A stretch of 33,559 nt of DNA. Source: Nemertoderma westbladi. Lineage: Eukaryota; Animalia; Xenacoelomorpha. Position numbers and translations under genes: made by a program. Where the stretch lies: NCBI GenBank assembly GCA_032718475.1, contig JAUCBJ010008454.1:1-33559 (forward strand), given 5' to 3'. The notes under the pieces are model-generated. The model worked only from the letters and a program-made list of their open reading frames with translations, did no database searches and was not told the origin of the DNA. Below, one piece after another: positions 1-29,248 of the stretch. Numbering within the stretch: position 1 is the stretch's first letter; each line of letters opens with the position of its first letter.

Positions 1-189
1 TCTTGATGTAACTACGTTGTCAGATAGAGCATGCTGATTTCTTTTGATTAGCATTGTACCGCAGTACGGTACCACACTATTAATGTAACAGCACCCGCAG
101 TAACAAACTAAGTCATTGTATACAATATCATGAGCCGGATATAATCAGATGTGTACACAGTCATGGGATGCGGTCAACCACGCAGTCAG

Positions 190-367
190 AGCAGCATCGC
201 TGCCAGCCTCGCATCCAGCCAGCCTCGCAGCCAGCCTCGCGGCACGTAGCAACCTCGCAGCCAGCCAGCCTCGCAGCCAGCCTCGCGGCGCGCAGCAGCC
301 TCGCGGTCGGTCATGTAGTCAGCCTCGCGGCACGCAGCCAGCTACGTAGCTAGGCACGTAGTCAGCC
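190..367. repeat. GC-rich imperfect tandem repeat built from CAGCCTCG / GCAGCCAGCCTCGC / GGCACGTAG units
   Basis: About 9 copies of a CAGCCTCG-type core, visible directly; a GC island in AT-rich flanks just downstream of the TBP-like gene. Confidence 0.8.
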
Positions 368-455
368 CGTGAGAGTCATGCTTATTCAAACGAGGTTAGT
401 TTTCCCTAACTACCGATTGATTGATTGAAAAATAATAATGTTTAATTTTCACCTT

Positions 456-1001
456 CTAATCACCAACACCTAAAGTCACAACACCAAACATTAATAAATA
501 ATTAACAAGTTTACTAAATATAGGGTAATAAATGTGAAATTTGCTAGGTGAACACATTAAAGTACATTTACCAGTATGAAAGCAACAAATGACTACGGTA
601 TTATTTATTCTTATTTTGCAATTATTAAAAATTTCAGGTTCATATATAACTTGAAGTTGCACATTATCAAAGACAACATAAAACCCGGTATTGTTTATCA
701 ATAACCTATAGACTACAGACTTGATACTAAAAATATAAGTACATAAATTAACAGATTTTAAAATCAAATTAATACTAGTTTTATCAAATATATGTTTTTT
801 TACTTTTTGGAAATTATACTTACTGCCTAATAATGTAATACGACCATTTTTAAATATTAATAATGTGGCACCAAATATCTTATATATAAACTGATTTGGT
901 TTGAGTATGTGTTTACCAGATAATTGATTTTTTAATTCTTTCAAATTAATCGCTGACACTTGCTGACAACTTACATTCTTATTGACTATCTGATAGTTCA
1001 T
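456..1001 (-). CDS. Divergent TATA-binding protein (TBP)-like protein, core domain only, probably element-encoded
   Basis: 181 aa, the size of the TBP core, with two-repeat architecture. YQIVNKNVS resembles LQNIVST; ATLLIFKNGRITLLGSK resembles TALIFSSGKMVCTGAK; YEPEIFN resembles YEPELFP; ICCFHTGKCTL resembles LIFVSGKVVL. Intronless, ATG at 1001-999, overlaps the PolB 3' end by 23 nt, ATTAAA polyA-like signal at 446-441. Confidence 0.8.
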   Translation of the reverse strand: MNYQIVNKNVSCQQVSAINLKELKNQLSGKHILKPNQFIYKIFGATLLIFKNGRITLLGSKYNFQKVKKHIFDKTSINLILKSVNLCTYIFSIKSVVYRLLINNTGFYVVFDNVQLQVIYEPEIFNNCKIRINNTVVICCFHTGKCTLMCSPSKFHIYYPIFSKLVNYLLMFGVVTLGVGD

Positions 1002-4000
1002 TGTTTGGTTCCCGATAAATAGGTATATTGTTTTTCTTTATCGGTTTTTCGACCTTTGTTTGATAGTGACCCCAGGGAAGCGAATGATTTTTATTAATCC
1101 AATAAAGTTTATCGTCAAATGCGCTGAGAGCAAACTTATCACGTGCTATAGTATACACTTTGTGTAATTTGCTCTGAAATTGAATCGTTTCTTTTGAAAT
1201 TTCTAAGTTATCGTAATATGCTCTTACGTAATCTTCGTGGCAAATATTTTTATCCACGACCGATCTTGTAATACCTTTTGCTCTACGAATATTTTTATTA
1301 TTCCATTCCAAAATTGAATATAACTTTGGTCTTAAAAATACCGCTTGTTTAATTTCACGTGAGGCTAGTTCGTCTTTGCAGTAATAGAGCCTGGATTTAT
1401 TTTTATCGCTGTAGAGAGGATGATCCTTGGGGTAATTGGATGTATCTAGAATATTATTTTTAATTAAGGCTTTTAAGAAATTACTCTGCGATGTGTTATA
1501 GTAACAGCCTATCAATGAGTCAGTGTCTGATGCTACAATTTCAATTCGGCAGTTTAATTCTTTCTCAATAGGTAGCAATTTATCGTAATACAACTCATAC
1601 ATATCCAATTTAGCCAAGTCCAAGACAGTACTACCTACATAGACCGGTTTATCGAGAGTTACAGAGTCTTTCACTAATAAATGTCCCGATAAGGAATCGT
1701 TATAAATCATGAAATTTTCGTGATTTATACGTTTGACCAACAAATCGCACTTCTCTTTACTATTCGCGATACGAAAGTTGCATCGGTCTCGTATCCTCTC
1801 TATCGTTTTTCCAAATAACGAATTATTCAAAAGCTTTGCGACAGCTGTTTCAATATACGTTTTTGCTAAACGTCTTTGATTAATATTAAAATCTATATAG
1901 TGTTTAAATACAAAGTCTTGATGGAAAGAATATAATTTATGGAGCTTAGTAACAATTAAACCTTGTTTTATATAAAATTTTAACAGTTTCAAATTTACAT
2001 GATAGAATTCTTTATCGAATTGTGTCAACATAAGTTTTGGAGCACACATCTTATACTTGCTATTAGTACCTCTTTGTTTACAAACATTGTTATATTGTTC
2101 CCTCATATATGGTGAAAGCATTGTCTCATTTATACTTAAATGTTCTGGAGCTAAGGGTAGTTCTAATGTACGATCGTGAATATCTTTGGGATATTTCAAA
2201 TCGCAAATTAAGAAAAACCCAATATCCCCTTCAGTATCAAGATTTGACAAATATTTTATTAGTTCTTCTGGAGCAGCATTCTCTAAATATGTAACGTTGA
2301 CTTGTTCAAAACCTGAAACAGGTAGCTTTTTACTTAAATTTCCCGAATACAAGGAATTAAAATCTATATTGAAAATATGACACTCTTCCTTGCTTGGATC
2401 ATAATTATCAGTATCTGGTATATTTGATTCTATGTAATGCTTTCGACAGAATGAAACCCCTCCTCTAATAGATGCTTCAAAATCTCTATATGTTTGGTAA
2501 TCTTTTATTAATGCTAACTTACATTTATTGTATTTCAGAGCGCAATCATAAGTGAAAGCTGCGATACTGCAATAATAAACTACTTCTAATTCGTAGTTTT
2601 GTCTACATACTCTCCTAAAGTTCTCAAATATATCAGCGAGGAGACAAACATTGAGTTTTAAGTATGCTAAAAGATAATCCTTGAGATTCGAACAGTCAAA
2701 CTGACTCCATGATGCGTTGGCGAAACTATATTCCTCGGGTGTACAGGTATTTTGTGTTAATTTACTATAAAATTTGTCTATTGATGGTAATTTCGAATCA
2801 TTGAATTTATTTAAATCTGTCAGGTACTCGTAGGGAAATATACCTTTTCGTTTAATTGTTGCATTATTTAAATTTGGATAAAAATATTTCATTTGCTGTT
2901 CAGTAATTGGTAGAACTGATGTTATATCCTCGCTGTCTATATCCTTTGTTGAACAATCAACTAAAGTACTTAGGGAAAAGGATAAAAATTGATATGTGTC
3001 TAAGACACGTAGCTCAAGCTTTGTTTTTGAGTCTTTCACCGGTATATGCATGCTTAGTGAAATATACCTTTCAGAATTTTTAGGGATCACCTTTATATCC
3101 CAATCGGAATATTTATTGTTGGTAAAACCAACTTGCAAAAGAAAATGCAAATCGTAGTGATTGCTGTTGTGTGCAGCGAGTATATACATGTGTCATTTCA
3201 ACGATAAAGAGCGGTTACACGCGTTACAAGCGGCTGCTATATAGTTACCAGTAATATGTGAGTGATGTTTGTTTTTCTCAGACTTATCCTTAAATAAAAC
3301 ATTGCAATAAAAGCAAGTTTTAGCTTTCCAAAAACTTAACTTATCTGCATCATTAAGTATCATTCTCTCTCTTGTGTGGTCTTCCGACCACTTATATAAT
3401 TGGGTGATGTCATTATATACAGAGTCTAAAAAGTCTTGAATACAGTTGTTGTCGATTGTTTTTGTAAAGGTCTTCAAATAAAATTTTGGTGGATTGATTA
3501 ATTCGGCACTAGGAACAATTAAATAACTTACAGCGCAAGGAATATGATTCTGAATAAATTTACTGTTGGTGGCTGGCTCCAAAATAGATACTATGTCAAA
3601 ATATATTACAAACAATGCTGGTAATGTTCTGTCTAAATTTCTAAAGCTAATGTGAGTTCTTTTTTCAGATGGTAGCTTCTCAACTTGACTTTTTCCTCGA
3701 TAACAAACAAGACGGTGACGTTCTAGAACATCATTGGTGTAGAAAGGTGCCAAACACCGTTCACAATATTTCCTACATCCAATATGCTTACCTCTTGTAT
3801 TCATCAAACGATTCAAGTTAGTTATGCAAACATAATGTGATTGTTTACTCGTATTCTTATTTTTTACAAGTAATATATTCAATAACTCTTTATCTGGTGT
3901 GATTTTACTAAATGGTGCCTGTCTTAATATAGATACTCGATTGTTGTTGTAGAGTAATAAATTAATTATATATGCTGAATTCTGTTTTTCAAAAAGTTTA

Positions 4001-5004
4001 ATTGCAAGCTGCCATTCTGTTGGATAATCTTTGTTCCCGTTGTCAAAAATGAAATGACTCATATAATTTTTGTATGACGAAGTACGATATTTGTGATCTT
4101 TCACTTTGCTACTAAATTTTGTAGCTATAATTGCCCATTTGAAACAGTCATTATCACCCGTTTGTATATTTATTGTACAATTTTTACCTGATAGAGCCTT
4201 AGGTAACTCCATATAACCATGTCCTTTATATAGTAACGACCTACACTTGGATTCAGCTACTTTAATTTCAACCCTTAATAAAGATTTAACACGCCACCCT
4301 GAGCCACGAGTGTTAAACATGGCTATTTTTTGCATTAATTTTTCTAATACATACTCAAACCATGTGTCAAAACTTTCATGTGAATCTACGGTATTAACTG
4401 CACCACCTGAAGAACTAAAATAGAAAGCTTCTTCTTGATCACCCTCTGAAAAATGTGATCGATACATGAGTATATTCACACCTAGCCAGGGTCTAAGTAC
4501 ATTCATTTCGCTAAGTTTTCCTAATAATAAAGTTTGGATGTGAGGTAGAATTTTAATTAATGATGAATGAATATCAGGAAAATCTTCATCATCTGGAAGA
4601 TTGTAAACATAGATTTCTAAATGGTTATCGTGTGCGGCTCGTTCGATGTTAAAAATTGATGAACCTTGACCAGATTTCAGTCTTTTTCTAGATACCATAG
4701 TATTGTTTTGGTTCCGTTGTGGTGGTGGTGGTCTAACATGATAATAACGTTGGTGACAGTCGTGACGTAAGTAATTCTCATATAAATACTCTTTATTACA
4801 AGTAGGGCAAGTTTTTTCATACACGCAAAACTTCATTTCTTTACATCCCGTAGTCGATTCATGTCGTTTACATATTTCTTCACGTGAACATTTCACACGA
4901 CAATTAAAACAATTGTATTCTTCAAAATGAGATTTCACATGTGTTAAATAATTTCGTTTAGAAATTTGAAGAGGACAAAATGGACATTTCAATTGTTTAT
5001 CCAT
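979..5004 (-). pseudogene. Protein-primed family B DNA polymerase (Polinton/Maverick/adintovirus type), about 1340 codons, interrupted by one in-frame TGA at 3195-3193
   Basis: ORFs 3193-5004 and 979-3189 are in the same frame (AAA TGA CAC ATG). Motifs: N-terminal zinc fingers, GSGW, DNDCFKWAI, HYVCITNLNRL, CERCL, ExoI-like FVIYFDIVS, EndoVII-like CFYC..HHSH..CNACN, ExoII HNSNHYD, RKGIFPYEY, IRGG, motif A DFNSLY, motif B KLLNNSLFGK, motif C SDTDS, PKLYS, AKGI. Confidence 0.93.
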
Positions 5005-5339
5005 CTCTTTATTATCCTAAAAACAATTTAAAATTAATATGAATATTGTTATATATATATAATCAAAAAAAATTCATAAGCTACTCAACACAAATAAAAT
5101 ATAATATCTAAACTTTAATTAATTTAATATTTTCAGAATGAGATCGATTGAATCAGTTGAGTTCTTTATATATATATATATTTCAAGTTTCTACTTATAC
5201 CAACCAATCATAAATAACAGTTACATTGGAAACTAATATCATAAATAAAGTTGCTTTTACAACTGAATTCTTTATAATAAAATCAAGTCTAAACCAAGAT
5301 GTGTCTAATGCGTTTTTAATTTTCATTGATAAAGTAGGT

Positions 5340-5470
5340 TTTACATGCAAATGTTTTATTATGGTGGTGTAAACTCACGCATTTACATGCGAATGTTTTA
5401 TACCTAATCCCGTGCTCACATTAAACTATCACCAATATTTACTCAATAAAGTCACCTTTACATGCAAATA
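5340..5470. promoter_or_regulatory. Three direct repeats TTTACATGC(A/G)AAT containing octamer (POU-factor) motifs upstream of PolB
   Basis: ATGCAAAT at 5345-5352 and 5462-5469, ATGCGAAT at 5387-5394, each preceded by TTTAC. Regulatory function is inferred. Confidence 0.45.
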
Positions 5471-5557
5471 CTTTATAATAATCACGCTTTGTGATAAAAA
5501 GTTACCTTTACAAGTCAGTGTGAAACTGAAAAAGAAAAGTCTCTAGTTAATAATAAA

Positions 5558-6604
5558 TCAATCTGATACTGTTTTTATATGTTCCTTATTGTAATCTGCT
5601 ACCTCTTCACTTGCTTTTGTAACTTTTATTTTCTTTGTAGGTATAGAATCATTGTTGGGAATGGAAGATGATTGAGATGTAGATCTGCGCTTTCTATCAC
5701 TCGAGGTCTCTTCGATGTATGTCTTTGGATTAAATGTGGATGAAACTACTTCTGGAAATGACTTATTATCCTTAAACTTCCAAGTTGGTGGATATAGAAT
5801 CACGAAACCGTCTGCTATATCAGTTGATGAAACCTTTAACATCATATCATAGAGAAACTCTATATGAGGTATGTCTTTATCGTAATGTAACTGTAAATAT
5901 TTGCTTTCCTTGTCTGTAATAATTACTTTTTTTTCTTGTACATTTATTTTTACTTTAAGTCGGTCAGATAAAGCTACTTTATCGTCCGTATCTAGCTCTG
6001 AAAAGACACCTTCGTTACTAATTTCATAATTCCATTCATACCACAATGAATTTACTTCCGATGCTGTTAAGTTAAACCCATTATAATACCTAAGACCAAT
6101 AGCATCAGAATATCTAGCTGAAATCTCCCATAGTCCCATATAAGTCGCTCCTTTATATTTGCTTACAAAACCAACAAAAGATGGGTTGGTTAAATTAACA
6201 ACATAACACTGATTTATTATTTCGAGTGGTGGTGATAACAATTCTAATATTTCTGTCTTACTCTGAAGTAATAAATTAATGAGTGATTTGTTTAGAATTT
6301 GACATTTGCCTTGCTTCTGAATATATACGTTTTCAGTAATAACACAGGTGGAAATATTTAACTTTCCTCTTGTAAATTCTATATTAGGATAAATATTACC
6401 TCTTGAAACTGGTGATTCCTTTTGTCGGTTGAATAATATTTCTAAGACGTCTAGAAGGTAGAGTGTATCCTGGTAAGAGAAGCACGTTGTTACATTGCTA
6501 TCGCTTGAGAGTAATATAAAGTACTTGCCATAAACAATACTACAGGTATATTTATTAAATGTAAATTTCCAAGTATTGCTTGAAGTTTTTTTAAATAAAT
6601 CCAT
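5558..6604 (-). CDS. PC4/Sub1-like ssDNA-binding protein, possibly several degenerate PC4-fold repeats, with basic NLS-like tail
   Basis: 348-aa intronless ORF. FVSKYKGATYMGLWE...GFNLTASEVNSL resembles the PC4 consensus VSVRDFKGKVLIDIRE...GISLNPEQWSQL. RKRR and PTKKIK lie in a Ser-rich C-terminus. Confidence 0.6.
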   Translation of the reverse strand: MDLFKKTSSNTWKFTFNKYTCSIVYGKYFILLSSDSNVTTCFSYQDTLYLLDVLEILFNRQKESPVSRGNIYPNIEFTRGKLNISTCVITENVYIQKQGKCQILNKSLINLLLQSKTEILELLSPPLEIINQCYVVNLTNPSFVGFVSKYKGATYMGLWEISARYSDAIGLRYYNGFNLTASEVNSLWYEWNYEISNEGVFSELDTDDKVALSDRLKVKINVQEKKVIITDKESKYLQLHYDKDIPHIEFLYDMMLKVSSTDIADGFVILYPPTWKFKDNKSFPEVVSSTFNPKTYIEETSSDRKRRSTSQSSSIPNNDSIPTKKIKVTKASEEVADYNKEHIKTVSD

Positions 6605-6727
6605 AATTAGAATGAAAACTATTTTGAAAAATAAAAACTAAATAAATGATTATTAGATTGTAAAACTTCGGTTTATATGGTTGCTTTAATAAAACAGAGT
6701 GACTTACAGTGAGGAATATAGTAGATT

Positions 6728-6817
6728 CGTGTAACAGATGCAACGTGTACAGCTAAATTTATTACATTAGCGTGAGTTAGAGAGTGAAATAGCAGTAACG
6801 TGTAACAGATGCAACGT
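6728..6817. repeat. Perfect 19-bp direct repeat CGTGTAACAGATGCAACGT (6728-6746 and 6799-6817) upstream of the PC4-like gene
   Basis: Identical copies seen directly; each contains the E-box CAGATG. Confidence 0.75.
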
Positions 6818-7155
6818 AATCAATGCTAGCCCTGTCATTCTAACTTATATTCAACTTAGTTGATCGACCAGTTACAACGATAAAAGAAATTGATTATTAT
6901 TAATAGTCGAATTAATGTATTCTACGCTATAGTAATTATGTTAAGGAACTAGAAGCTATTTATAAACATCTGCTACCGGTGATGAAGATGAAGAATTCAA
7001 TGACTATGGTATAACTCAGATATTTATCGCCTTTTTCTCTCGAGGTTGGATGGAAGAGTGATTGGTGAGTTGTGAGGAGTTATATCGGTCCCGGGTTCGA
7101 ATCCGGTTGAATATTTTGTTATCTGAAAAATTGCAAAATTAAATTTAGTTACTGG

Positions 7156-7510
7156 TGAAAAATAGTAGAAGTTACCTGTAGACACCTCTAGCATCTGTAA
7201 GATAAAGGTTGGTGAATATGAAAAATACTGGTTGCTGAAAAATTGCGATTTGAAAAATAGTAGAAGTTACCTGTAGACACCTCTAGCGTCTGTAAAATAA
7301 AGGTTGGTAAATATGAAAAATACTGGTTGCTGAAAAATTGCGATTTGAAAAATAGTAGAAGTTACCTGTAGACACCTCTAGCGTCTGTAAAATAACGGTT
7401 GGTGAATATGAAAAATACTGGTTGGTGAAAAATTGCGATTTGAAAAATAGTAGACGTTACCCGATGCTAAGTGTAGACACTCGAACACCTGTAAAATAAA
7501 GGTTGGTGAT
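7156..7510 (-). repeat. 95-bp tandem repeat (units start at 7156, 7251, 7346, 7441), each carrying minus-strand acceptor/micro-exon/donor signals
   Basis: Three near-identical units plus a diverged fourth. The minus strand reads cctttattttacag|ACGCTAGAGGTGTCTACAG|gtaact. Confidence 0.85.
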
Positions 7511-7740
7511 TGGATGCAGTACTAGCGTCGGGGGACTAATAACGCCTCTAGCGGAATAAGCGGGAACTTGAGAATTTACCATGGTTACGGATGAAATGCT
7601 GTCATCTGATTGGTTGAAATAATAACGACCACCGCTAAAGGATGAAATGGTGGCTTCTGATTGGTTGCAGTACCAGAAATGGATGGTAATGATGGGCTAC
7701 GGGTGACCTTGGCCGGGGGTCATAGTATATTATACTACTT
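7505..7740. promoter_or_regulatory. Putative divergent promoter with repeated CCAAT boxes and a palindromic TATA-like element
   Basis: ATTGG at 7509, 7609 and 7660; duplicated GGATGAAATG..TCTGATTGGTTG block at 7589 and 7640; TAGTATA-T-TATACTA palindrome at 7723-7737. Lies between oppositely oriented genes. Confidence 0.5.
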
Positions 7741-7763
7741 ATACTCTACCTTTACAAGCACTT

Positions 7764-9147
7764 GTGGATAGCTTGATACGCGGTGAAGCCGATCCAACCA
7801 TTACGGAGGACGATGGTCGTTATATCGAACCGCCGATGTCCCAAGAGCAACTTACGCGTGAATTGGACTATCGAAAATTCACCGCTCGCGATACGCATCG
7901 TAATGGTACGTATATGGACTTCCTAACTACCGGCCATCCTATCGATTTACATGATACGGACGATGTAGACACCGAAAGGGAAATGGTTCTATTTAAATAT
8001 CATACCCAGCGGAGTCGTAACGATAAACCTAAAATAGATCACGAAAATTATATTCGTAACAGACTGGGAAGACGAACCAATATGCCTAGAATCTGAGGAG
8101 ATTCAGCCTATCGCGCCCGGAACAGCGACAACGATTACATCCTAGAATGGTATCAAGGTCCACAGTGTCTCACTGCGTACGATTATCGCCATGCCAACTA
8201 TGTTTCTCGGCAACGTTGTCGGTTATGCGCATCGAGAGACCATGTTACGCCCATGGACACAAACGTCCGCTGTTCCTATTTCCACGAACAACCGGCGAGG
8301 GAAATTTATTGCGCGTATTGCAGACTCAATAACTTGCACATTTTTGCGGTTTGCCCTCAATTTATGACTCAATGGCACCATTGTCAACTAAAGGGACGCG
8401 CCAGTTTCGATTGCCCTTTTTAATCACGATTTGGAAAGCTTAGATGAAATGATCACACTACGTTACATCAGAGCTTGGGAAGCGAACGCTGATTTACATT
8501 GTGATTCGCGCCATCGTTATTATCCTGGACGCGCTTACGAAGGAGTTTATGCGTTCCATCCTTATCTATTCGCTTCTGTCGAACAGAAATCACACATATC
8601 GAGTTACGAACTACTGAAGCGCGTCGGAGAATGTATTTCAACCAAGTTCGTACGTAAATTTCTCAGGAGTGTTAATCCTAGCGACCTTCATTCCTATAAC
8701 TTAATCAATTACATCCGTCAGGATCCGGACTATGGAGACTTATTTGTTAACTCACACCCCGAGTTACAGGAAGTATATCGACGGCCTTACGAATACCGAG
8801 CCCGCGAACGCGAGTTGGAAAGAACCATTAAACCCCGGAGGTTTCTAACTGCCTATGGTCCACCCACGGCTCTCGTTCAGACCACTCGTAAAGGACCCGT
8901 AAGAGCGGCTGTCTTAAAACGAGCTCTCAAAGCCGTTAGACCCCTCTCCCCCAATGTTGATGTCAATCAACCAGGTACTTCGACTGGCGGATACACCGAC
9001 CATAATCCTACACCCTCTGATGCAATCATATTGCACCCTTCACCCAGGAGTTATAGCCCTCCTTGTAAAGTGGCTCGCCCCAAAGAGAAAAAGACTCTGG
9101 CTAGCTTTAAAAAACTGCGTAAACGCCGTCCGCGCAAGAAAGACTAA
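7764..9147 (+). pseudogene. Disrupted ~460-aa CCHC zinc-knuckle protein with a Pro/Ser-rich, basic C-terminus
   Basis: Reading through TGA 8094-8096 gives an open frame to 8423 encoding CRLCASRDH..C, CAYCRLNNLHIFAVCP and degenerate WHHCQLKGRASFDCP. Removing one T from the T5 run at 8417-8421 joins it to ORF 8431-9147, which ends KKLRKRRPRKKD. The start codon is uncertain (GTG). Confidence 0.65.
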
Positions 9148-10559
9148 CTGTTTAGAGTATTTACGTATATTAGAAACTGTGATTTTGTATATTTTATAGA
9201 CTCAAATCCCATTTTCTGGGAGCGGTGTAAAAGCTTCTGTGGGATATAACTGGCCCCTTTGCTTCGCAATCCAGTTTCCCCCCAGGCGCTGGAATACTCT
9301 AAAAGGTTCTCTAACTGTATATATATTCCCCTCGCCCGCAAGGTACTGTTACAGGTGTTTTAACGGACATAAAAGTCATTCGTCTATATACCTGCTTTGG
9401 CGGACATGGTAAGGCAAAAAACCCGCAATGCACCAAATACCTTTACACGGCTTGGCCTTGATGATTCAGATTGCGACATCTAGCAGCTGGTTGCTGGCAT
9501 GGAAACAGCCATTGGACGCACGGTTCTTTGTTTGGTTTGAGCCAATCAGAGCGATTTTTTCTGTCGACGTGTAGATATTCGGCCGATGATACTAGGAGTG
9601 TTCAGTCTTACTGTTTTTTGTGATACTGTTGTGTTGTTGCTCTCTAGGCCAGGAACACCGGCTCTAGAGTCAATTCGTTTCAGACTTTAGAAGAAACATT
9701 AGTAGGCTTAAGATTATAGAGCGTATAACTGTTATCTTGTCACATCTTGTCATATCATATCTTAACATACCGTCTTAATGCTGTTTACTGTTGTGTTTTG
9801 GTTGAATATTATTTGGAGAACATATAAAAAGAACCCAAATTTCCCAATTTTCTTGATACACTACAGGTTAGAGAGACGGGTTATATATAGCGATTGCGAC
9901 TTATATTATTGTGGTTTGTAGTGAATTTAATGCTATTTGATAAGCCCTACATGAGTCAGTTGCTGTTCGCTTTATATATGATAAAATTCATTGACGGTCG
10001 GCAAATTAGTGAGCAGTATTGTGTGTTACCGGTAGTGTGCATGATTGTGACTGATAACTAAGCATTTCCTAAAGAATGCGCCTCATACGTGAATCATAAG
10101 CCTTACCGACTTACCGTTGTGATTAGTATAAGTCATATCTCTGTTTACCTAGATAGAGCGCCACGTCCTAAAGGAACTGTTAATATTTCCCGAAAGTGAA
10201 TAATATTAGTCAGAAATTATTTATTAACGATCAATCGAATAATACAATACAGTAAGCTTACACTGCAATAATAATCTAAGCCCTCAGAATCCAGTCTCCC
10301 GGGTATATCCAGCGGGTGAATGGACGCGCACTAGGCTGGCTTCTGCTAATGTTGTGTTTATTGGTATTAAATATTTGTCATCTTCTAAAGTCTATTTATA
10401 AACCAAAAGACATATAAATTTTGGCAGGTTAAACTGCTAAAGGTCTTCAAAAGCGCCTACAGCTAAGTATACTTAGCTGTGCCTACGTCTTTCCAGTCAG
10501 CAGCCCCTTTAGCTTCGTCACCCTTTTAGCCAGTCTAGCTTCCTTGCGGTTTACTGCTT

Positions 10560-11215
10560 TTCCACTTAATGACGAAGGGTTTGTTCTTAATAAAGTTACT
10601 GTGTAAAAGTATTGTGACACCCTCGCATTACGTTACCACCTCCCACCCAATATCTCGTTTCCCATCACACTATGTCTGTTGTACATCAGACTTTAAACCG
10701 GATCATGCTATGACTTGTAAGAAGGGTGGCTTTATCGCTTTAAGACATAACGAAGTGCGCCATTTACTTGCTGGCCAGGTGTGTCATGATGATGTTGGAG
10801 TTTAGCCGAGATTACAGCCTCTTTCTAGTACAGTAGTATCCGTGAGGCCTACCTTTACATTGTATAGCGTGCTCATTCAAAGACATTGTACAATGTACAT
10901 GTCGACCTCGACATGGTCGTCCTTCCTAATGTGTATATCGTACAAAGAAACTTCCAATACCAGCACTTTATATGTCCTATGAGAACGATAAACGTACTAT
11001 AACGATAACAAAATGACAATGTACTCAATGTTGAAACAGCTACCTTCACTCCCCTTGTCTACACTTTGAGTGTTACTGCGAGTTCAAAATGCCGTGGCTT
11101 TGTAAAGCAGTTGTCTGATCCTCTTGTAAGGATACAGTAGCTCAACATATCCCGATGTGGCCCAATGTGAGCCAATGGCTCAGCTATCACTCAGTCTGGT
11201 GAGGTTAGCAATAAT
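10560..11215 (+). mobile_element. Decayed 3' part (zinc finger plus restriction-like endonuclease) of a CRE-like non-LTR retrotransposon
   Basis: DHAMTCKKGGFIALRHNEVRHLLA..VCHD..PRLQPL and downstream YENDKR..VLNVETATFTPLV match the HxxxCKKGG..RHNE..TFTPLVF pattern of these elements. Multiple stops and frameshifts. Confidence 0.75.
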
Positions 11216-11281
11216 GCGCCTCTAGTGTCATATATTTCTGGCAACCTCTAGTCTCGACAGACGACCACTGCGTGCCTCCTA

Positions 11282-11425
11282 GGGGTCTTGGGACGTTAGT
11301 GCTCTCGAGACAGTAGTGCCCGCGGCCACTAATGTCTGAGTATCTTTAGTGCCCGCGGTCACTTAGCCGCATTGTCGCGGGCACTATTGTCCCATAGGAC
11401 GTAAGTGCCCGCGAGACGTTAGCGA
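11282..11425. repeat. Cluster of (C)GTTAGTGCCC / GGGCACTA motifs, largely inverted relative to the 51-bp array at 12285-12670
   Basis: GGGACGTTAGTGCTCTCGAGACAGTAGTGCCCGCGG is close to the reverse complement of CCTCGGGCACTAATGACTCGAGGGCACTAACGTCCC. Confidence 0.65.
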
Positions 11426-11567
11426 GACGCATCGCCATCTAGCGATTTACCGGTAGTATAATGTAATACAACAGAGCCAGGAAGACAATTCCCGCTTCTT
11501 TAGTTCCTGCTGATTCAAACGACTCGTTACTACTATCTTCAAACTTCAAAGGTACAAATTTACATTT

Positions 11568-11640
11568 CCCGTACCCCGTTTTTAGTTCCCGCACCCCGTT
11601 TTTAGTTCCCGCACCCCGTTTTTAGTTCCCACACCGCGTT
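11568..11640. repeat. 20-bp minisatellite (CCCGCACCCCGTTTTTAGTT), about 3.5 copies
   Basis: Seen directly. Confidence 0.85.
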
Positions 11641-12284
11641 AAATTTAACCCTTTTTTCTTTCAACTTGAATCATTTCTAAATAAAAAAATGTATTACCCT
11701 CAGCTAGACATGGTAGCCTTTATATTATTTTGTTTTGCGGTAAAGTCGTCAAGGAATGAGGATTAAGCAAAGGCGTTTGATTGTTTATGCATAACCGACT
11801 TTTGACTGAGTTTGTTTACTTTGCTGCGGTGTCAACGTGTAATATATAAACAAGGTGCAGTACTACAACTAATAATATATGTATAGTAATATATGTAACT
11901 AATTAAATATAATGAATGAATGATTTCAAGAATAATACTCAGTCGTTTGTCTGACATTTTGTCGACGAATTAAAAGTAAAGTAATGGGGTATAAAGTAAG
12001 AAGAAAAACTGATTGCCTTTATACCGCTGTGCTATCGCTGGAGAACATTATTATATTTAAGTTTACGAGGAAAATTTAAAACTTTTTTGGGAGCGAACGA
12101 ATGCGTTGTATTGGATGTATAATGGATGTGATTGTGATTGCAAACCCCGCTATATGATAGGGTCATGGAGAGGTGACAATCCTGGTCTGGTCATCCAACA
12201 AACGAGCTCGTCTGGCTTTACACATTTTACCAATACATGCTACAGTGAACTACAACAGTATGTACTGTAAATTCAAAATACAAT

Positions 12285-12672
12285 GCGGGCACTAATGTCT
12301 CACTACTTGCAGACGAGATCATCAGGCACTAATGACTCGAGGGCACTAACGTCTCACTTGTAGACAAGGTCATCAGGCACTAATGACTCGAGGGCACTAA
12401 CGTCTCACTTGCGACAAGGTCCTCGGGCACTAATGACTCACGGGCACTAACGTCCCACTTGCAGACAAGATCCTCGGGCACTAATGACTCGAGGGCACCA
12501 ACGTCTCACTTGCAGACAAGATCCTCGGGCACTAATGACTCGTGGGCACTAACGTCTCACTTGCAGACAAGATCCTCGGGCACTAATGACTCGTGGGCAC
12601 TAACGTCTCACTTGCAGACAAGATCCTCGGGCACTAATGACTCGTGGGCACTAACGTCTCACTTGTAGGCAA
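12285..12672. repeat. 51-bp tandem repeat, about 7 copies, with 17-bp subunit structure
   Basis: Unit GGGCACTAATGACTCGT-GGGCACTAACGTCTCAC-TTGCAGACAAGATCCTC; the last copies are essentially identical. Confidence 0.92.
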
Positions 12673-13731
12673 GGTTATTAATTTTACTATTTATTTCATT
12701 ACATAAATATTACCAGTATGCTACATTGGTAAAACAAATAGACCATCTGATCTATTGTTAGTATGTCGAATTGTTATGGTTTTATTCATTGAATTTTTTA
12801 CTTACCTTTTAATGATTATTGTTTTTTATTACTTAATGTTACCACCTTTTTTACTTACAATTTTAATATTCCGTATTATTTAATTATTGTGTATAAATGT
12901 TTTACTGCTACTGTACTCGGCGTAATCATAATAACATACTTAATGAATGCGCTTAATTAATGTTAAATAAGTAGATAATAATTAATAATTTGAGACAGTA
13001 GCAAAGGAGTGAATAATTGTTTTTGTATTGGTGTGTTGGTGTTCACTATGTTAGTGTACCGGTACTACAGCTGTACAGTAGAGGCAGGATGTCTGTCTGT
13101 ATTGCAACGCCCCTCTATATACAGTATTATAATAAGACGATTATAATACTATGTAATATGTATGTATGTGTATAATCATTGTTTGAATATACATGGAGGT
13201 GTTTTATGACAACTTCCCGTATTTAACACATCATCAATTATGAATTGTAAATGTAGTCTAAACAGTTACTGTCACCTTTTGAAGATAACATTCTCCTTCA
13301 GAGAAAGAAAAGTATATAAGTTGATGAATTGGTATTACTGTATTTATATAACGTCATGTGTTTATAATAGTCACTAAATCACCTTGGATTTCTCATTTGT
13401 AATTTTGCTGTGATTAATTATTGTAATATAATATATTTCTAACAGTGAGTTGATTATTTCCGTTATAGTTATAGGTTTACGTAAAAGTATTAGAAATAAT
13501 ACAAAATATTTTTTTAATTTAATTTATAAAAGGGGCCGCCACCCAATAAACAAACTATTGTTAAAAATAATCGTAGCGTAATGTTCTCAAACAGTAAAGT
13601 ATTTCCTGCCAAAATATGATTTTTTTTAAATAATACAAAAATAAAAAAAGCATCAACAATGCAAGTAACTGGTCATTGACCTTAGAATAATTTTTAGATC
13701 CGGGTAGCGAGACCTGTAATAACCACTCCGT

Positions 13732-13848
<117 letters not shown>

Positions 13849-14738
13849 CTGATTTCCAATTTACTTTTGTTAACTTTGGTACAGCTCTGGTATTTAACTC
13901 ACTTTGTATGGTATGGCGCTTTTGCTCACTTTGTAGAGCATTCGATTTCGAATTCGAGAAACCGAGTTCAACCCCTGACTTATGTTTATGTTTTTAGATT
14001 AAATTATTTTAGATACCGTACCTAGATGCGGACCTTTGCGCGATTTCGCGTTTGTTATCCCTAAAACTGATTCACTTTGTTGCTTTTGTGACCATATCTC
14101 CGTAAATAATATTTTCCAATATCTTTTCGTTTGTCCAAAATATCTACAGTAGTTGACAGATTATTTCTGTTTTAATGCAAGTTTTAAATATGCAGTGGCC
14201 ACTTTGCACTAGAAAAATTTACTATATCTGGAAAAATGTACGACTTGAAATAAATATTTTCAGTTGAACATTACAAAACTTATCTCGCTCTAATAATTAA
14301 TTTACTCTGACAAGTTCAATAAGCGAATTCTGTTAACTATATTATGTGCTGTAGGCAATAAATTGTTTTGTTGTGTGTATTTTTGCCTTCAAGGTGTCCC
14401 ATAACACACCACCAGTTCTATATTTTGTTTGGGAGTACGTAAGTTGAGTACTTAAATTTTAGTATTAAATATATTAAATTAATAATAGCAGTGTTTATAG
14501 AATTAATTTTATATTTTTATTAGATAATATTATTACAATTAATATTATTATTAATTACTTACAATTACCTATTACTGATGATATTGTAATATACCTGTAA
14601 CAACAATAATGTCATAATGTCATAATGATAATATATAATAATAATAATGGTACTTTTTAAATAAGATTTTATTAAGAAATGTTGTACAATAGTCCACTAA
14701 TACTACTGTATTGTATTTCTATATAAAAAGATAGTAAA

Positions 14739-16643
14739 ATGTTCACCAAAAATTCAATCCATATAGTTGCGATACTAACAATGTTCTTATCTCATTACGC
14801 TGATTGCGCATCTGTTATGCTTCCAGAATTAGAATCCATGGTTACCATTGATGATGACGTTGTACAACTTCCGCCATTGGCGTCACTTAACGTCAGTGGA
14901 GATTTATTATTGCCAATAGATTCTTATGTATTAATACGTTGCCAGGTGATGGGAAACCCTCAACCAATAATAAGTTGGCCTGGTGTTCCAGATAATCTAT
15001 TATTGGTTGAATCAATTGGCATTGGTAAAGAGGTTCTGAATGTTAGCCAATCAGGAAGTTACCGTTGTTCCGCTGGGAATACTGAGGGTTTAGCCTTTAG
15101 CCAATGGGTGACAGTCACAGTAATAGACTGGTCTTCGTATAGCAACAATTCCGAGACAATACCTATAGAAGCGGACTTAAATGAAGCAATCTCGTTACCA
15201 TGCCAACAACACTTTCATACTTTTTCAGATATAATTCATGAAAAATTTACATTTTATTGGACAAAAGATGAGTTGAAAGTCGAGGAAAGCAATAGTGTTG
15301 TGATTGAAAGAAGTGGGGTTCTACATTTATTGAATGTTTTGGCAAGCGACGAAACTATATGGACTTGTAGAGTTTCATACCTACGTAATATCTCGTGGTG
15401 GCAGCTATCTTCTTTCAACCTAACCGTTAATAGGCCTACACAAGTTTTTCAAATAAATTTTATGATTTTTAATTTTATTACATCGCCAAGAATCTACGTG
15501 TTCTTACATGTTGGGGAAAACACCGAACTATACTGCATAACAAATGGTTTCTATGGTGACAATGAACCAAAAGTACAATGGAAATTTACGAAATATCCCT
15601 ATGGAATGTACCAGCTGATTGAACCTCAGCCCTCAAATCAATACAAATTTATTATTAGAAACGCAACTGCGTCAGACTTCGGAATGTACGAATGCACCGC
15701 TACAAACGGTGGCTCCGTATTATCAAGGATATTTACGGTGCAAAGTTTTTGTAGAGAACAGAGTTACTATTTGACTAGCAACCGCTACGACAACAAACTT
15801 ACAAAATCATATGGTAACACGATAATAGCTCCCGGAGAAAAATTTAAGTTTACTTGTGGTAAAACATGTGGTAAAGCTATATCTAGAATACATTTTAATG
15901 GTAATCGCACATTCCCTGAAGTAGTTGAAAATTTAGTCAATAGTTCAACAGAAGTTGAAGGTTTGATATCAACAAACAACAGTACAGGCGTCTACAGGTG
16001 TCTAGTGGAGCACTACGGAAAACAAATACATTATACCGAAACATACCTCAAGGTGGCGCTTATTTCCCCAAAAATAATAGTCCCTCCAACCGATCCTGAG
16101 AACATTACTATGGCAACTAATGGATCTAAATTCAATTTTACTTGTTACATACTGGCATCCCCCAAAGCCAATTTGTACTGGGTAGTCAAGACAACTGCGT
16201 ACAACATTGGTGTTGTTATTAGACCATTTCAAGAGTTCGGAAAGACGGTGTTTGCTACTGAAAGCGCTGGCGGGTATATCACAACATTATTCATTAATAA
16301 TATGCAACCTTCACTTGAAGGCACATATACTTGTGTTGGTAAATATGGTGGTGTGTCAACAAATAGGACATTTAACGTTGTTATAAACCCGCCATTAACC
16401 TCAGATAATCATATTTTTATTTATTACAAGTTAATCTTTATAATTCCATTGTGTCTCTTAGTGACGCTAGGGTGCGTACTATGTCGAAGGAAGCGCGGAT
16501 TCGTTGAACCGCCGGTAGATGTCGTTGTAAAGGAATCTGTTTCGATGTGGGACCTCGATTCAATCTACGGGGAGGGTTTCAACGAAGACGGAAGTTTTAT
16601 CGGGATCTACGCTGATTTTAAACCGGAAACATCGGAATTATAG
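14739..16643 (+). CDS. Intronless type I membrane Ig-superfamily protein: signal peptide, 5 Ig domains, TM helix, L1CAM/neuroglian-type ankyrin-binding tail
   Basis: 634-aa ORF with hydrophobic N-terminus. Five Ig Cys pairs (RCQV/YRCSA, LPCQ/WTCRV, LYCI/YECTA, FTCG/YRCLV, FTCY/YTCVG), TM LIFIIPLCLLVTLGCVLC followed by RRKR, tail GFNEDGSFIGIY (L1 consensus FNEDGSFIGQY), C-terminal SEL. Confidence 0.9.
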   Translation: MFTKNSIHIVAILTMFLSHYADCASVMLPELESMVTIDDDVVQLPPLASLNVSGDLLLPIDSYVLIRCQVMGNPQPIISWPGVPDNLLLVESIGIGKEVLNVSQSGSYRCSAGNTEGLAFSQWVTVTVIDWSSYSNNSETIPIEADLNEAISLPCQQHFHTFSDIIHEKFTFYWTKDELKVEESNSVVIERSGVLHLLNVLASDETIWTCRVSYLRNISWWQLSSFNLTVNRPTQVFQINFMIFNFITSPRIYVFLHVGENTELYCITNGFYGDNEPKVQWKFTKYPYGMYQLIEPQPSNQYKFIIRNATASDFGMYECTATNGGSVLSRIFTVQSFCREQSYYLTSNRYDNKLTKSYGNTIIAPGEKFKFTCGKTCGKAISRIHFNGNRTFPEVVENLVNSSTEVEGLISTNNSTGVYRCLVEHYGKQIHYTETYLKVALISPKIIVPPTDPENITMATNGSKFNFTCYILASPKANLYWVVKTTAYNIGVVIRPFQEFGKTVFATESAGGYITTLFINNMQPSLEGTYTCVGKYGGVSTNRTFNVVINPPLTSDNHIFIYYKLIFIIPLCLLVTLGCVLCRRKRGFVEPPVDVVVKESVSMWDLDSIYGEGFNEDGSFIGIYADFKPETSEL

Positions 16644-18669: not shown

Positions 18670-20775
18670 TTTAAACAAAAAGTGGAGAAACAGCATGATC
18701 AACTGCGAGGCATACAGCTCGTTCAACCTAATTGGTTCGGACCACAGAATTGTGACTGCAGAGATCAGACTCAGTTTGAGAGCCAGCAATCCCAACACAA
18801 GCAAGCAAATCAACTATGACTGGGAGAAACTCAGTAACAATGCTGTAAAGGATGCTTACACAGTACAAGTTCAAAACCGCTTTGAAGCACTTCAGTCAAT
18901 GGATGAAGACCAGTCCACCGATTCAATATACCAGAATATAATAACAGCCCACAAGGAATCAGCTTAGAGGCATATCCCCCAGAAACCCAAACGAAAACAG
19001 TATGTGCCATGGCAAAACTCTGAGGTTACATGTAAGAGTGAGAAGATCTTAAGATAGCCTACAAAGTAAAAACCGAATAACCAACAACCGAAAACATTAA
19101 CAAGGTTGAGAAAGCTAAGGATGATCTTAAATTGGCCTACAACATCAGCTAGGAAAAGTACATACAAGATAAAATTGAAGCAATTTCAACTGCTCACATA
19201 CAGCAACAGTCAAGACTTACCTGGCAAACTGTGAATGAGGTATCTGGTCGGAAAAGTTGTGCAAAGGGGCGCCTCAAAGCCGATGGTCCCGAAGAACGTG
19301 TGAGGAAGTGGAAACATCACTTCAGCAACTTGCTTGGGCAGCCACCAAACATCGAGGTCAGCCCTACAAGCCATATGACAAGACACTACCTATAGAGACA
19401 GGGGACTTCACATTCACACCTGCCGAACTCCAAAAAAGCATTAAAAGCATGTCCAATAATAAAGCGAGTGGATTAGATGAAATTCCAGCAGAGGTATTGG
19501 AAAACATGAGTGCTAAACAGACCATTATTGAATGTTTGCAACCTGATGTTAAAAGGAGAAAAGCCTCCACCAATTTGGACTAAAGGTCAACTAAAGCGTC
19601 TCCCCAAGAAAGGAGACCTCGGTATACCAACAAACTATCGTGGGATCTGTCTGCTTGTGGTAGCTGCCAAAATATACAATAAAATGATTCTATATAGGAT
19701 TAGGCCTCACATAGAGAAACTACTGCGTAAGAGCCAAAACGGATTTCGACCAAGTAGATCAACAATAGCTCAGATACTTGGCTACGGAGACTGATTGAAG
19801 GAATTAAGTCAAAGAATCTCCACGCAGTCATGACTTTTGTGGACTTCAAGAAGGCATTCGACTCCATCCATAGAGGTAAAATACTTGAAATCCTAAGAGC
19901 TTATGGAATACCAGAAGTAATCGTTTCTGGCATTGGATTGTTATATTGTGACACAGAAGACAGATACAGATGGTGAAACTGAGTTTTTCTGAATCCTGGC
20001 TGGCGTACTGCAAGGTGACACATTAGCACCATTACTATTATTACGCAATGAGGACGGCCACAAAGGGTGAAGATCTGGGATTCACACTTCAAGAACGCAG
20101 AAGTAGTAGATATCCGGCAACTACAGTCACAGACACCTTTGCAGACTTTGCGGATGACATCGCCCTGCTCTCTAATACTCTAGCAGATGCACAGCTTCTA
20201 CTACATAAAGTGGAGAGGGCTGCTAAGGAGGTTGGATTGCATATAAATGCTACCAATGCCGAATTCATGACCTTTAATGTTGATGGAAACTTGACAACCA
20301 TTGATAATAATCAACTAAGGAAGGTTGAAGACTAAGTTCTTTCGAGCCACAGTGGAAAGTGTATTTTTATACGGGGGTGAGACCTGGACACCGACTAAAT
20401 CACTTGAACAACGAATTGATGGTTGCTACACAAGACTACTAAGGGCAGCCCTAAACATCAGCTGGAGACAACACATGACAAACGCCGAGCTTTATGGTAC
20501 AATACCACCTGTATCAACCACCGTCCGTGAACGCAGATTAAGATTCAGTGGGCACTACTGGCGAAATAAAGACGAGGTCATACCAGATCTACTTTTCTGG
20601 CAACCAACTCATGGAAAGCGTAGTCGTGGACGACCGGCCATACCATATATAGATCAACTTGAAAGGGATGCTGAACTTGGGAGAAACGAAATTGCGACAA
20701 CTATGGAGAATCGGAAAGCCTGGAAGGATCTCATTTCCACTGTCCGAGTTCGCTCGACTTAGTAGTAGTAGTAGT
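18670..20775 (+). mobile_element. 5'-truncated decayed RTE-clade LINE (end of APE domain, RT, C-terminus) with (TAG)n tail
   Basis: SDHRIV, KASGLDEIPAE, PKKGDL..NYRGI, QNGFRPSRS, FVDFKKAFDS, QGDTLAP, FADDIALL, LYGGETW, RRLRFSGH. TAG repeats at 20760-20774. Many frameshifts. Confidence 0.93.
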
Positions 20776-21240
20776 TCGTGTCCAAAATCATAGATATCTT
20801 ATTCCAGCTTACAGTACGACCACCCAGTCCAGTAGCCTTTCACCTACAAACCACCCCCCCCCCCCTCCCCCCCCATCTATCTAATTAAAATTGTATAGTG
20901 AAATAATTTTGGCCTATACCTTAATAAATACTATTTAGTTAACTAAGAGCATCACAGTGGGGTTTAACAAATATTGCCAAGAATGTATTTCCAACTAACA
21001 GTTAATTATTGTCAATCACAGTATGGAGTTCATTGGCTCATAGAAGAGTAAATTGCTTCGGTTAATCAATTATCTCAATGGGGTATGGAGTGGAATCCAT
21101 TTTTGTTTCACGATATGGCGATTTATAAAGTAATTAGTTTCCAACTGATATTCTACTCAATTTTAGTGTTGTGAACTTCTTTGATAGCAAAATCAGCATA
21201 AAATCGTATGAGAGTAAATGTGTTTCTGAGTTTCCTGTTA

Positions 21241-21293
21241 TCGGAATTGTTAGAGCGTCAGACTTCCAATCTGGAGGTCACCAGTTCGATCCC
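21241..21293 (+). other. Degenerate tRNA-like segment (tRNA-derived SINE head or tRNA pseudogene)
   Basis: GTTAGAGCG D-arm end, stem-loop TCAGA-CTTCCAA-TCTGG, then GGTC and GTTCGATCC B-box. No intact acceptor stem. Confidence 0.45.
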
Positions 21294-21356
21294 ACATAAA
21301 AGTTAAACGCGAGATAGAGACAACTTTATATTTTAATCTGAAACTGGCCTAGTTTC

Positions 21357-21705
21357 TCCGGGTACATTGTGTCAAGTACAATGAACACATCTCCCCATCA
21401 GACCTTAAACATCATTGCAGGTGTCTCAATAGTCCACCCAAGCTTGACACTTGAACAGAGCCGCATCCTCTTTTCAGGACATTGCTTTCGCCGTGAGGAC
21501 CAGCCAGTGCATAATCTTGTACTTTGGCAGCCTCATAGAGAGATAAGCATGGCGGACGGACAGCCCATGACTTTCTTGAGACGCATCTTAAAGGAAACTG
21601 TCTTTAAAATGCGGATAATCTCGCCAAAGTTAGGGGGATAGGGAGTTGTGAATTTTGTCGATATGCCGGCATATCATTCTTAATGTAGCTCCCGGCCATC
21701 GTGTC
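21357..21705 (+). mobile_element. 3' fragment of RTE LINE family B
   Basis: SLTLEQSR..FSGHCFRREDQPVHNLVLWQP, closely similar to the copy at 31020-31415. Confidence 0.85.
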
Positions 21706-27945: not shown

Positions 27946-29248
27946 TTGCAGAAGTGAAGGCTGCTGCAAAGAGCATTAAGACCAATCGTGCCAGTGGAGT
28001 AGATGGTGTTCCGCCTGAGGTCTTTATCATACCTGAGTGTTTAAAGCTCATCCATCCCATCATAGTAGACATGTACCGAACAACAAGAGTCCCACAAGAA
28101 ATGAAAACAAATAAGTTGGTGCCAGTTCCCAAGAAGGTCAACCTAACACTCTATGGTTCTTTTCGGGGAATCTCATTGATCTCGATTGCTGCAAAGCTAT
28201 ACAATAGGATTCTATTAAATCGCATCAGGGATTCCATTGAGAGACTGCTCCGTGGAAATCAGAATGGGTTCCGTAAAGGTCGTTGGACCATGGAGCCCAT
28301 TTTGGCACTTAGAAGGATAATTGAAGAGTATCAGGCATCTGGCTGTTATCTTTGTTGACTTATTCAAGGCCTTTGATTCAGTCTCTCGCTCACGTATGTT
28401 CAGCATACTTTCATTATGGGATTCCTGATGAAATTATTGCAGCAATCAGATCAGTATACGATGGTACGACAACATTTGTGTCTACTGTTGATGGTGATAC
28501 AGAACCATCTTAAGTATCATGGGGAGTCCCCCAAGGCGACACACTTGCGCCATCCTTGTTCATAATTGTGGTTGACTATGTTCTACGCATGTCCTTAGAT
28601 CATCATAACGATGATGGGGTGATGGTAACTCCAACTACTGTTTCCAGAAGTCGAGGAAATCCTGCCAAGTACCTAACTGATCTAGACTTTGCTGATGACT
28701 TAGGAGTACTCTCAAAATCACGAGAGGGTGCCCATGCCCAAGGGCTCCTCAGCTCATAAGAACAGGCTGCTTCTAGTTTTGGTCTTTTATTAACTCCAAA
28801 AAGACCAAAATGTTGACAATTAACTTTGAAAGCACTCAGCAAGTCTCTGACCGGATGAGCATAAATAAGCTCAAAGGATGGTATGCTTGAGCATGTGGAC
28901 AACTTCTATTACCTGGGATCATGGATCCGGAAGTCAGGTGAGGACCTTCGAATACGTAAGGGAAAGGCATGGGCAGCCTTGAATAGGCTTTTCAGTCACC
29001 AGTTCAAGTCACCGAGAATTAATCGGAAACTTAAGGTCCGATTATTTAGAGCAGCAGTAGTTCCAGTACTCCTCTATGGGAGTCCATGCTGGGCTCTAAC
29101 TGCTGAGGACACCAAATCTTTGGATGGCACATTCACAAGAATGCTACGCCGGGTAGAGTCAAGTACAATGCACAAATCTCCAACCAGATACTATATAACA
29201 TTGGAGGTGTCTCATCTGCATGCTGCAGCATGCCGATCCTAGTAGCAG
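27946..29248 (+). mobile_element. 5'-truncated decayed RTE LINE family B flanked by a ~67-bp target-site duplication
   Basis: ASGVDGVPPE, PKK..FRGISL, QNGFRKGR, PQGDTLA, DFADDL, FYYLGS, LLYGSPCW; TAG tail; direct repeats at 27879-27945 and 29249-29325. Confidence 0.92.

Follow-up and report, generated by a model that had tools for sequence, protein, structure and literature searches.

A TBP homologue in a decayed copy of a probable Polinton from Nemertoderma westbladi and its proposed role in late transcription through host factors

Polintons (Mavericks, adintoviruses) are the closest described relatives of the element analysed here, which lies in the genome of Nemertoderma westbladi (assembly GCA_032718475.1, contig JAUCBJ010008454.1, positions 1–33,559 of the forward strand; this whole stretch is called the window, and its open reading frames (ORFs) were called with the standard code). 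As far as the accessible text of PMC8502044 and PMC8097293 describes such elements, ours shares with them a divergent protein-primed DNA polymerase B (PolB), compact intronless genes and presence in many copies. A small cysteine-rich gene upstream of PolB in the window recalls the 'Oncoid' genes of adintoviruses, and relatives of the window element carry an rve integrase, an A32-like ATPase, a PLA2 gene and a capsid-like gene. The element is very probably a Polinton. It differs from the described ones by a gene whose product is homologous to TATA-box-binding protein (TBP), which is not among the eight core genes given in that text and which here marks a supported PolB clade, with a candidate promoter box in one relative, the locus L030. 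A TBP label in such elements is already in print: in the accessible parts of Starrett 2021 (PMC8502044) and a preprint it appears as a figure-legend label only, and the main texts of PMC8097293 (Barreat and Katzourakis 2021) and of a 2026 preprint on Polinton-like viruses, in their accessible parts, do not mention TBP. An earlier reading of the letters alone (the sequence-only reading) had raised the possibility that this gene set already defines a described Polinton group; the printed label stands, and we found no analysis of it in the literature covered, subscription papers and Repbase being outside the search.

TBP-like proteins are also described from larger viruses. The viral TBPs of beta- and gammaherpesviruses (BcRF1, ORF24 and UL87) go with TATT late promoters (PMC4893493, accessible part). 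The likeness to our element lies in a TBP-like protein in a virus without an RNA polymerase and in a late, non-canonical TATA variant (here in L030 only). The herpesvirus protein, about 10% identical to TBP, is part of a multi-subunit complex of the virus (same source and part), whereas the Polinton TBP is a bare saddle of 165–200 amino acids (aa) that keeps the residues for host TFIIB contact and for which no partner genes were found. By analogy, the Polinton protein would work like the herpesvirus TBP mimic without being a member of that system. The TBPs of nucleocytoviruses are likewise two-lobed and keep the DNA-contact phenylalanines; their stirrup has diverged and they mostly come with their own TFIIB (PMC7221094, accessible part), whereas here the stirrup is kept and the L030 ORFs scanned have no TFIIB match. 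According to the same part of that source, two TBP glutamates contact TFIIB, large-virus TBPs keep the first glutamate only about 40% of the time, and large viruses with TBP mostly encode their own TFIIB.

We read the window element as a decayed copy of a probable Polinton, and consider it rather probable that the compact TBP of its lineage recognizes a TATA box of non-standard sequence and brings in TFIIB and RNA polymerase II (Pol II) of the host for late genes. The features that bear on this reading are as follows.

1–10461, no strand: multi-copy element region, delimited by contig depth; left end outside the window, right end at about 10461 (±5)
456–1001, minus strand: compact TBP homologue of 181 aa in an open frame, from Pfam TBP and family profiles
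979–5004, minus strand: protein-primed DNA polymerase B of the Polinton type with one in-frame stop at 3193–3195, from homologues and motifs
5558–6604, minus strand: 348-aa ORF, possibly (on weak evidence) for a single-stranded-DNA-binding protein of the PC4/Pur fold, made up of repeated beta-strand/helix units with a tail of low complexity

The 181-aa protein is, on profile evidence, almost certainly a TBP homologue, as the sequence-only reading had proposed. It matches Pfam TBP (PF00352) at an E value of 3.5e-10 (40 bits; cut-off 22.9) in two stretches that correspond to both lobes, and a profile of 121 relatives, built with the window protein excluded, matches its residues 2–169 at 4.5e-21. 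A four-sequence alignment gathered a family of 367 proteins from 1198 candidates; the 120 homologues listed from it all match PF00352 and have a median length of 173 aa. The 47-sequence family profile matches 35 solved TBP sequences (best E value 2e-32), and Atlas puts one member, P0060, at 0.96 with TBP clusters. Profiles were needed because single-protein searches reach almost nothing: with the window TBP as query, one search returned no relatives and another a single one (P0002, E value 8e-4), and phmmer against the PDB gave no TBP at E values up to 1. TBP scans of viral contigs yielded no loci, family queries against phage records no relatives, and neither Pfam TBP nor Pfam PC4 matched any of the seven virus records covered, out of 49 loci.

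Aligned through P0002 to solved TBPs, and compared with the 121 relatives, the window protein retains N7, F50, E121, E123, F125 and F141. Three of the four DNA-intercalating phenylalanines and the first asparagine are thus kept, and the second asparagine position holds serine; we take these mapped positions to have the DNA-contact roles of their counterparts. Among the relatives, the second, third and fourth phenylalanines (F50, F125 and F141 in the window) are retained in 120/121, 121/121 and 119/121, whereas the first position is proline in 116/121, as it is in the window (P35). Each of the TFIIB-contact stirrup glutamates (E121 and E123 in the window) is retained in 120 of the 121, a count that is inflated because the search used shared five-residue words from that very motif; the window protein was not selected by those words, yet it has both glutamates. 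Judged from these residues, the window TBP keeps its TFIIB-contact glutamates and has an altered N-terminal DNA-reading loop. The first-lobe phenylalanine pair of TBP reads the downstream half of the TATA box, so an altered first lobe would fit an altered seventh base in the box.

The linkage of TBP to PolB is not unique to this locus. A PolB alignment retrieved 26 viral loci and the best 80 of 567 metagenome loci (106 in total), and the TBP profile matches two of them, L030 and L053. L030, which makes up 19 of the 23 kb of its contig, carries in one direction PolB, KilA-N, PLA2, TBP, an ATPase, a zinc finger and a chromo-integrase, so that its late genes stand 3' of TBP in the same orientation; in the window, that direction runs out at base 1. 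In L053, PolB is followed by a pair of small beta-rich ORFs and then TBP. A scan with the TBP motif alone gave two contigs, both with adjoining Polinton genes: TBP stands beside an A32-like ATPase in L107 and beside a broken chromo-integrase in L108. Both contigs are Polinton fragments filed in prokaryotic genome bins, a placement that is probably contamination, and the L107 protein, which retains the first phenylalanine, is nearer to cellular TBP. The order PC4–PolB–TBP, for which the sequence-only reading had suggested a search at other loci, is not seen in L030 or L053: L030 has its TBP without a PC4 match, and PC4 was not detected by sequence in L053, where a 113-aa ORF has Atlas scores of 0.75 only, with no family assigned.

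Phylogeny places the window PolB among these loci. A FastTree tree was built from 148 PolB cores: the window, 55 proteins and 92 loci, after 14 short ones had been set aside. It puts the window together with 13 others, among them L030 and L053 (support 0.985), and a 32-sequence subset analysed with IQ-TREE gives the same clade (98.5/99) with the window as its deepest branch. In this tree, which contains no named reference Polinton, the neighbours of the window PolB have integrase, ATPase or capsid genes. One clade member, L033 (8.9 kb), has a major-capsid-like gene (Capsid_N, E value 0.033) and no TBP seen in it. TBP occurs in 2/9 clade loci (a lower bound, most of them being short, and the loci are not independent) versus 0/97 other loci, and in none of the 30 non-clade loci that carry two or more of the genes for integrase, ATPase and capsid. 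A weak TBP-profile match in L086 (E value 0.045, 59 aa) was not counted, and a scan with clade PolB added one locus, L109, which has no TBP. Among the L030 ORFs scanned against Pfam there was no match to TFIIB and none to the herpesvirus-type pre-initiation complex families. A TBP-less element with a related PolB, L032, carries at 5447–6085 a gene for a VLTF3-like late transcription factor (Pfam E value 1e-16), possibly an alternative solution for late transcription.

A candidate for the box comes from L030. The word CATAAAC occurs there at 12 sites, every one of them on the coding strand, whereas 3.45 would be expected for the two strands together (0/200 shuffles), and the next base is A or G at 10 of the 12. 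Of 13 genes listed by hand, 8 have the word within 150 nucleotides (nt) upstream, the integrase, ATPase and PLA2 genes among them; PolB and TBP do not. When upstream words were tested uniformly in 32 loci with at least eight ORFs, CATAAAC was the top word of L030 (7/14 genes, 0/100 shuffles). A non-canonical TATA variant before late genes is seen here in the relative L030 and not in the window element.

On the reading that we favour, PolB, the 348-aa gene and TBP would be early genes on ordinary promoters, transcribed first by host factors. After protein-primed replication, in which the 348-aa protein may be a single-stranded-DNA-binding helper of strand displacement, the element TBP would bind the variant box, its own; bound there, it would recruit host TFIIB through the kept stirrup, and hence host Pol II, which would turn on the particle and integration (late) genes. 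The redirection of host Pol II by an element TBP, as suggested by the sequence-only reading, is supported as likely, and we hold a late-switch function, taken by itself, to be slightly more probable than its absence. The broader proposal gives one clade of animal Polintons a private promoter code with a single protein: a minimal TBP, its DNA-reading face rebuilt, would dock on host TFIIB and read an element-specific box. This proposal is tentative and falls a little short of an even chance. The box would be CATAAACR in L030 and probably another word in the window element, the TBP of which differs at further DNA-contact positions.

The same residues and words bear on a different role, in which TBP is an accessory, host-modulating or non-selective protein (a substitute for host TBP on ordinary TATA boxes, a means of inhibitor resistance or a decoy for TFIIB) and no private code exists. 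Conservation is highest on the TFIIB-contact surface, with drift at DNA-contact positions in the two lobes; the window shows no special box; and Polintons have many interchangeable accessory genes (PMC8502044, accessible part). A merely accessory protein accounts less well for the retention of three intercalating phenylalanines and the first-lobe asparagine, and for the strand-specific, non-canonical word that in L030 precedes integrase, ATPase, PLA2 and other genes and spares PolB and TBP. We regard this role as unlikely.

Several observations tell against the late-switch reading or the assignments beneath it. Eight TBP-less loci in the uniform test also have a top word at no more than 5/100 shuffles; for seven it is an A/T-only word, and for L056 a CAG repeat (2/100 shuffles) tied with ATATAAA. 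The evidence for the box comes from one long relative, L030, and three sites on the coding strand of L033, though no TBP was seen in the 8.9 kb of the latter. In L030, several of the sites share bases with the stop codon of the gene before them, and one is just 11 nt ahead of a predicted start. The window has no excess of ATAAACR (22 found versus 23.1 expected); the window holds no late genes, hence its own box would be outside view. The clade count and the glutamate conservation carry the limits given above, and the 120 listed TBP homologues are known as proteins alone, without genomic context. Within its set the window TBP has diverged furthest, on a branch of 2.17 without a supported sister, and it has no proline after the third phenylalanine, versus proline in 117/121 relatives. 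Its single-sequence structure model has a predicted local distance difference test score (pLDDT) of 42, and in this low-confidence model residues 17–78 match the RNase H3 N-domain (Z 4.0–4.1); TBP is not among the entries listed by the structure search. Finally, the right end of the element (about 10461) is without the AG/AGT end motifs of vertebrate Mavericks and may belong to a plus-strand unit described below.

The 348-aa gene had been called PC4-like and joined with TBP in one module. All sequence tests for PC4 are negative: its signature (PF02229) gave no match in Pfam (the whole protein and three parts), PHROGs or PDB sequences, and a profile of six PC4-like sequences from Polinton loci gave none either. 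The protein has no relatives in viral contigs; PC4 queries found none in phage records, and the PC4 query from another Polinton locus, L076, none in viral contigs. What remains of the call is a weak structural hint. The single-sequence model (pLDDT 33) predicts a strand-strand-strand-strand-helix unit in residues 1–66, and for residues 1–69, 9 of the 50 rows listed carry Sub1, PC4 or Pur-alpha in their titles, the best being MoSub1 (Z 5.3, root-mean-square deviation 4.0, 63 residues), below two unrelated KhtT rows. A protein without the sequence signature and four to five times the length of a PC4 domain resembles PC4, Sub1 and Pur-alpha only through this low-confidence model, which makes a PC4/Pur-fold single-stranded-DNA-binding protein possible, if weakly so.

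Verified PC4 genes do occur in Polintons. L076 has one (Pfam E value 6e-5; human PC4 E value 1e-4) with relatives in L018 and L051, and the TBP profile has no match in any of these three loci; the PC4-family genes lie at 2298–2666 and 13550–13870 in L076 (two genes), 11376–11885 in L018 and 6229–6903 in L051. In the accessible part of PMC11662393, PC4 appears solely as a cluster label. These data bear on the idea of a two-part module, for basal transcription or for origin binding, composed of TBP and the 348-aa protein. Both genes flank PolB in the window, L053 has its two beta-rich ORFs between PolB and TBP, and the weak PC4/Pur hint from modelling would fit such a module. PC4 is nevertheless undetected by sequence in the window and in L053, L030 has TBP without a PC4 match, L076, L018 and L051 have PC4 without TBP, and the maps of Starrett Fig. 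S2 (PMC8502044, accessible part) label SSDBP genes and show no TBP label. We consider the module very improbable, and the combination proposed by the sequence-only reading is not supported. PC4-type genes travel without TBP, and a replication helper is therefore the simpler reading of the 348-aa protein, which would serve in replication rather than as a partner of TBP.

PolB itself is well supported, with 56 homologues at E values up to 1e-30 (28–37% identity) and a layout of N-terminal zinc fingers, an endonuclease-VII-like insert (Endonuclease_7, E value 0.001, below cut-off), exonuclease and polymerase. The polymerase motifs are present, and two exonuclease motifs differ from those of relatives. 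PF03175 has no match in the window PolB, which fits the Beta definition of Starrett (PMC8502044, accessible part), but several relatives do match PF03175. The claim of three compact, co-oriented intronless genes is correct for orientation (minus strand, 5558–6604, 979–5004 and 456–1001) and for the 23-nt overlap of PolB with the 181-aa gene, which is real (979–1001); PolB is not one open frame and consists of two same-frame pieces of 603 aa (3193–5004) and 736 aa (979–3189).

The break belongs to this copy. Six sequencing runs from four studies contain the window wholly or partly, three of them with at least half of its words. At position 3195 all covering contigs in three runs (16, 4 and 1) are unlike the window, as are all those at position 2652 in the Exo III motif (13, 3 and 1); the stop and the Exo III change are private to the window copy because every covering contig differs. 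An alternative code with TGA read-through (both breaks in the window are TGA) was rejected on the same contigs over 3195. Outside the break, 18 of 25 listed PolB differences between copies fall at third codon positions (p 9e-5; the listing holds the 40 best-supported of 847 rows), and the two listed indels, in PolB and the 348-aa ORF, are 3 nt each. The element family is under purifying selection, and the window copy is a decayed, left-truncated member of a multi-copy element.

Depth shows how far the element reaches. In runs X1 and X3, summed contig depth, which is not copy number and indicates many near-identical copies, stays at 1e4–1e6 between the first bin and about 10,460, then drops to about 50–100 just past that point; long pieces in X3 have depths of 5300–6500 in PolB and the 348-aa gene versus 46–50 in the flank, and in X4 depth is 11–270 in the same region. 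Contigs of the PolB region (window 1–7700) differ about 100-fold in depth between X3 and X4, which carry the same organism label, a gap that would reflect copy-number variation or free replicating copies. A single-copy contig from sample S1 (runs X1 and X2) matches the flank up to 10458 and then diverges from the window, which fits an allele without the element. Since repeat depth persists through the first bin (1–457), the element extends past base 1, and the lack of capsid and integrase genes in the window is uninformative for that reason. That lack, noted by the sequence-only reading, holds for positions 1–13,700, where integrase, ATPase, capsid, protease and PLA2 profiles have no match; no long inverted repeat pairing the two sides of the element was found, and Rfam gave no matches in 1–14,000. 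Two repeat tracts fall within the element.

202–342, no strand: GC-rich imperfect tandem repeats 3' of the TBP gene, within the multi-copy region
7156–7461, no strand: tandem repeat of a 95-bp unit (3.2 copies), lying between the divergent blocks of genes

Beyond 7461 the genes run on the plus strand, up to the right end of the element.

7609–7734, plus strand: promoter-like stretch recognized by eye, its function inferred; an AT-rich TATA-like word (7726–7734) is preceded by two ATTGG (reverse CCAAT) boxes, at 7609 and 7660
7836–8423, plus strand: gene rich in Cys and His, its knuckles recognized by eye (two CCHC-like, one degenerate), broken by a stop at 8094–8096; no Pfam match
8449–9147, plus strand: 232-aa orphan ORF with a basic C-terminus and no zinc knuckle; no relatives found
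10401–10461, no strand: terminal 60 nt common to repeats with different upstream sequence, with a stem-loop at about 10420–10441, from contigs and fold

The divergent zinc-knuckle gene of the sequence-only reading needs relocating: the 232-aa ORF ending at 9147, without relatives in searches that included viral contigs, has no knuckle, and the Cys/His clusters lie in the broken frame 7836–8423. There the ORF 7836–8096 is open up to a TGA and the clusters at 8097–8420 lie past the stop; the whole frame has no Pfam match at E values up to 5. GC content is 42–49% in the Cys/His-rich gene versus 25–33% in the minus-strand genes. The plus-strand unit (about 7770–10,461) begins behind the CCAAT-like and TATA-like words, shares its final 60 nt with other repeats and is deeper than the PolB part in all three samples, from several-fold (X1) to about 100-fold (X4). 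Loose contig ends fall before 10401–10407 and behind 10451–10461 in four runs. The unit may be the terminal unit of the element, amplified in shorter (non-autonomous) derivatives, or a separate mobile unit. The element-free allele overlaps the right end of the element by 4–5 nt, and a perfect 22-bp palindrome stands on the flank side of the junction (10459–10480).

This arrangement bears on whether the lineage is capsid-less or integrase-less, or a chimera of a Polinton replication block and a Gag-like knuckle unit, with the latter providing the right end and a different mode of insertion. The window has no late genes, the plus-strand unit stands apart in GC content and in the depth just described, the right end is non-canonical with its 4–5-nt overlap with the flank allele, and the accessible legend of Starrett Fig. 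5 (PMC8502044) lists Gag-like genes in some element with an adintovirus-like PolB. On the Polinton side, repeat depth reaches the left edge, the late genes of L030 follow TBP in the same direction and so would be off the sequence in the window, clade members have integrase, ATPase and a capsid-like gene, and no reverse transcriptase similarity appeared in 1–13,700 with the window's own long interspersed nuclear element (LINE) ORFs as queries. We judge the capsid-less or chimeric lineage improbable. The unusual lineage without capsid or integrase put forward by the sequence-only reading is not supported: L030, the closest TBP-bearing relative with long flanks, has integrase, ATPase and PLA2, L033 has its capsid-like gene, and the window is cut on the left; the window element's integrase, ATPase and capsid genes would lie left of base 1.

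To the right of the element are an immunoglobulin-domain gene, LINE fragments, a satellite and the start of a G-protein-coupled receptor gene, and from such host-type sequences we infer an animal host. The intronless gene at 14739–16643 (plus strand) encodes a 634-aa protein with a signal peptide, at least four immunoglobulin domains and a membrane segment; it is L1CAM/neuroglian-like without fibronectin domains, and its C-terminal word FNEDGSFIGIY matches Bravo_FIGEY weakly (E value 0.011). Tandem repeats include a 51-bp unit (12287–12673, 7.5 copies), a TTG run (13732–13848) and a 21-bp satellite (25517–27317, 86 copies). Decayed LINE fragments at 18695–21641 and 28071–31409 hold mutually similar reverse-transcriptase-like pieces, several with terminal TAG repeats, and a rhodopsin-family receptor gene starts at 31931–32365 (plus strand; Pfam 7tm_1, E value 2e-12).

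The window copy is dead and truncated, and its value is that of a further, deep-branching member of the clade. If a conserved element TBP and a matching late box prove true, they would be direct evidence of a timed gene programme in animal Polintons and would bear on whether these elements are true viruses; a single small protein and a short word would then suffice to test such a programme. TBPs that occur in nature with altered specificity and yet rely on host TFIIB would reveal how much change the TATA-reading surface tolerates. A private promoter code would let transposon-sized viruses pass from early to late genes without a polymerase, a TFIIB or a multi-subunit complex of their own.

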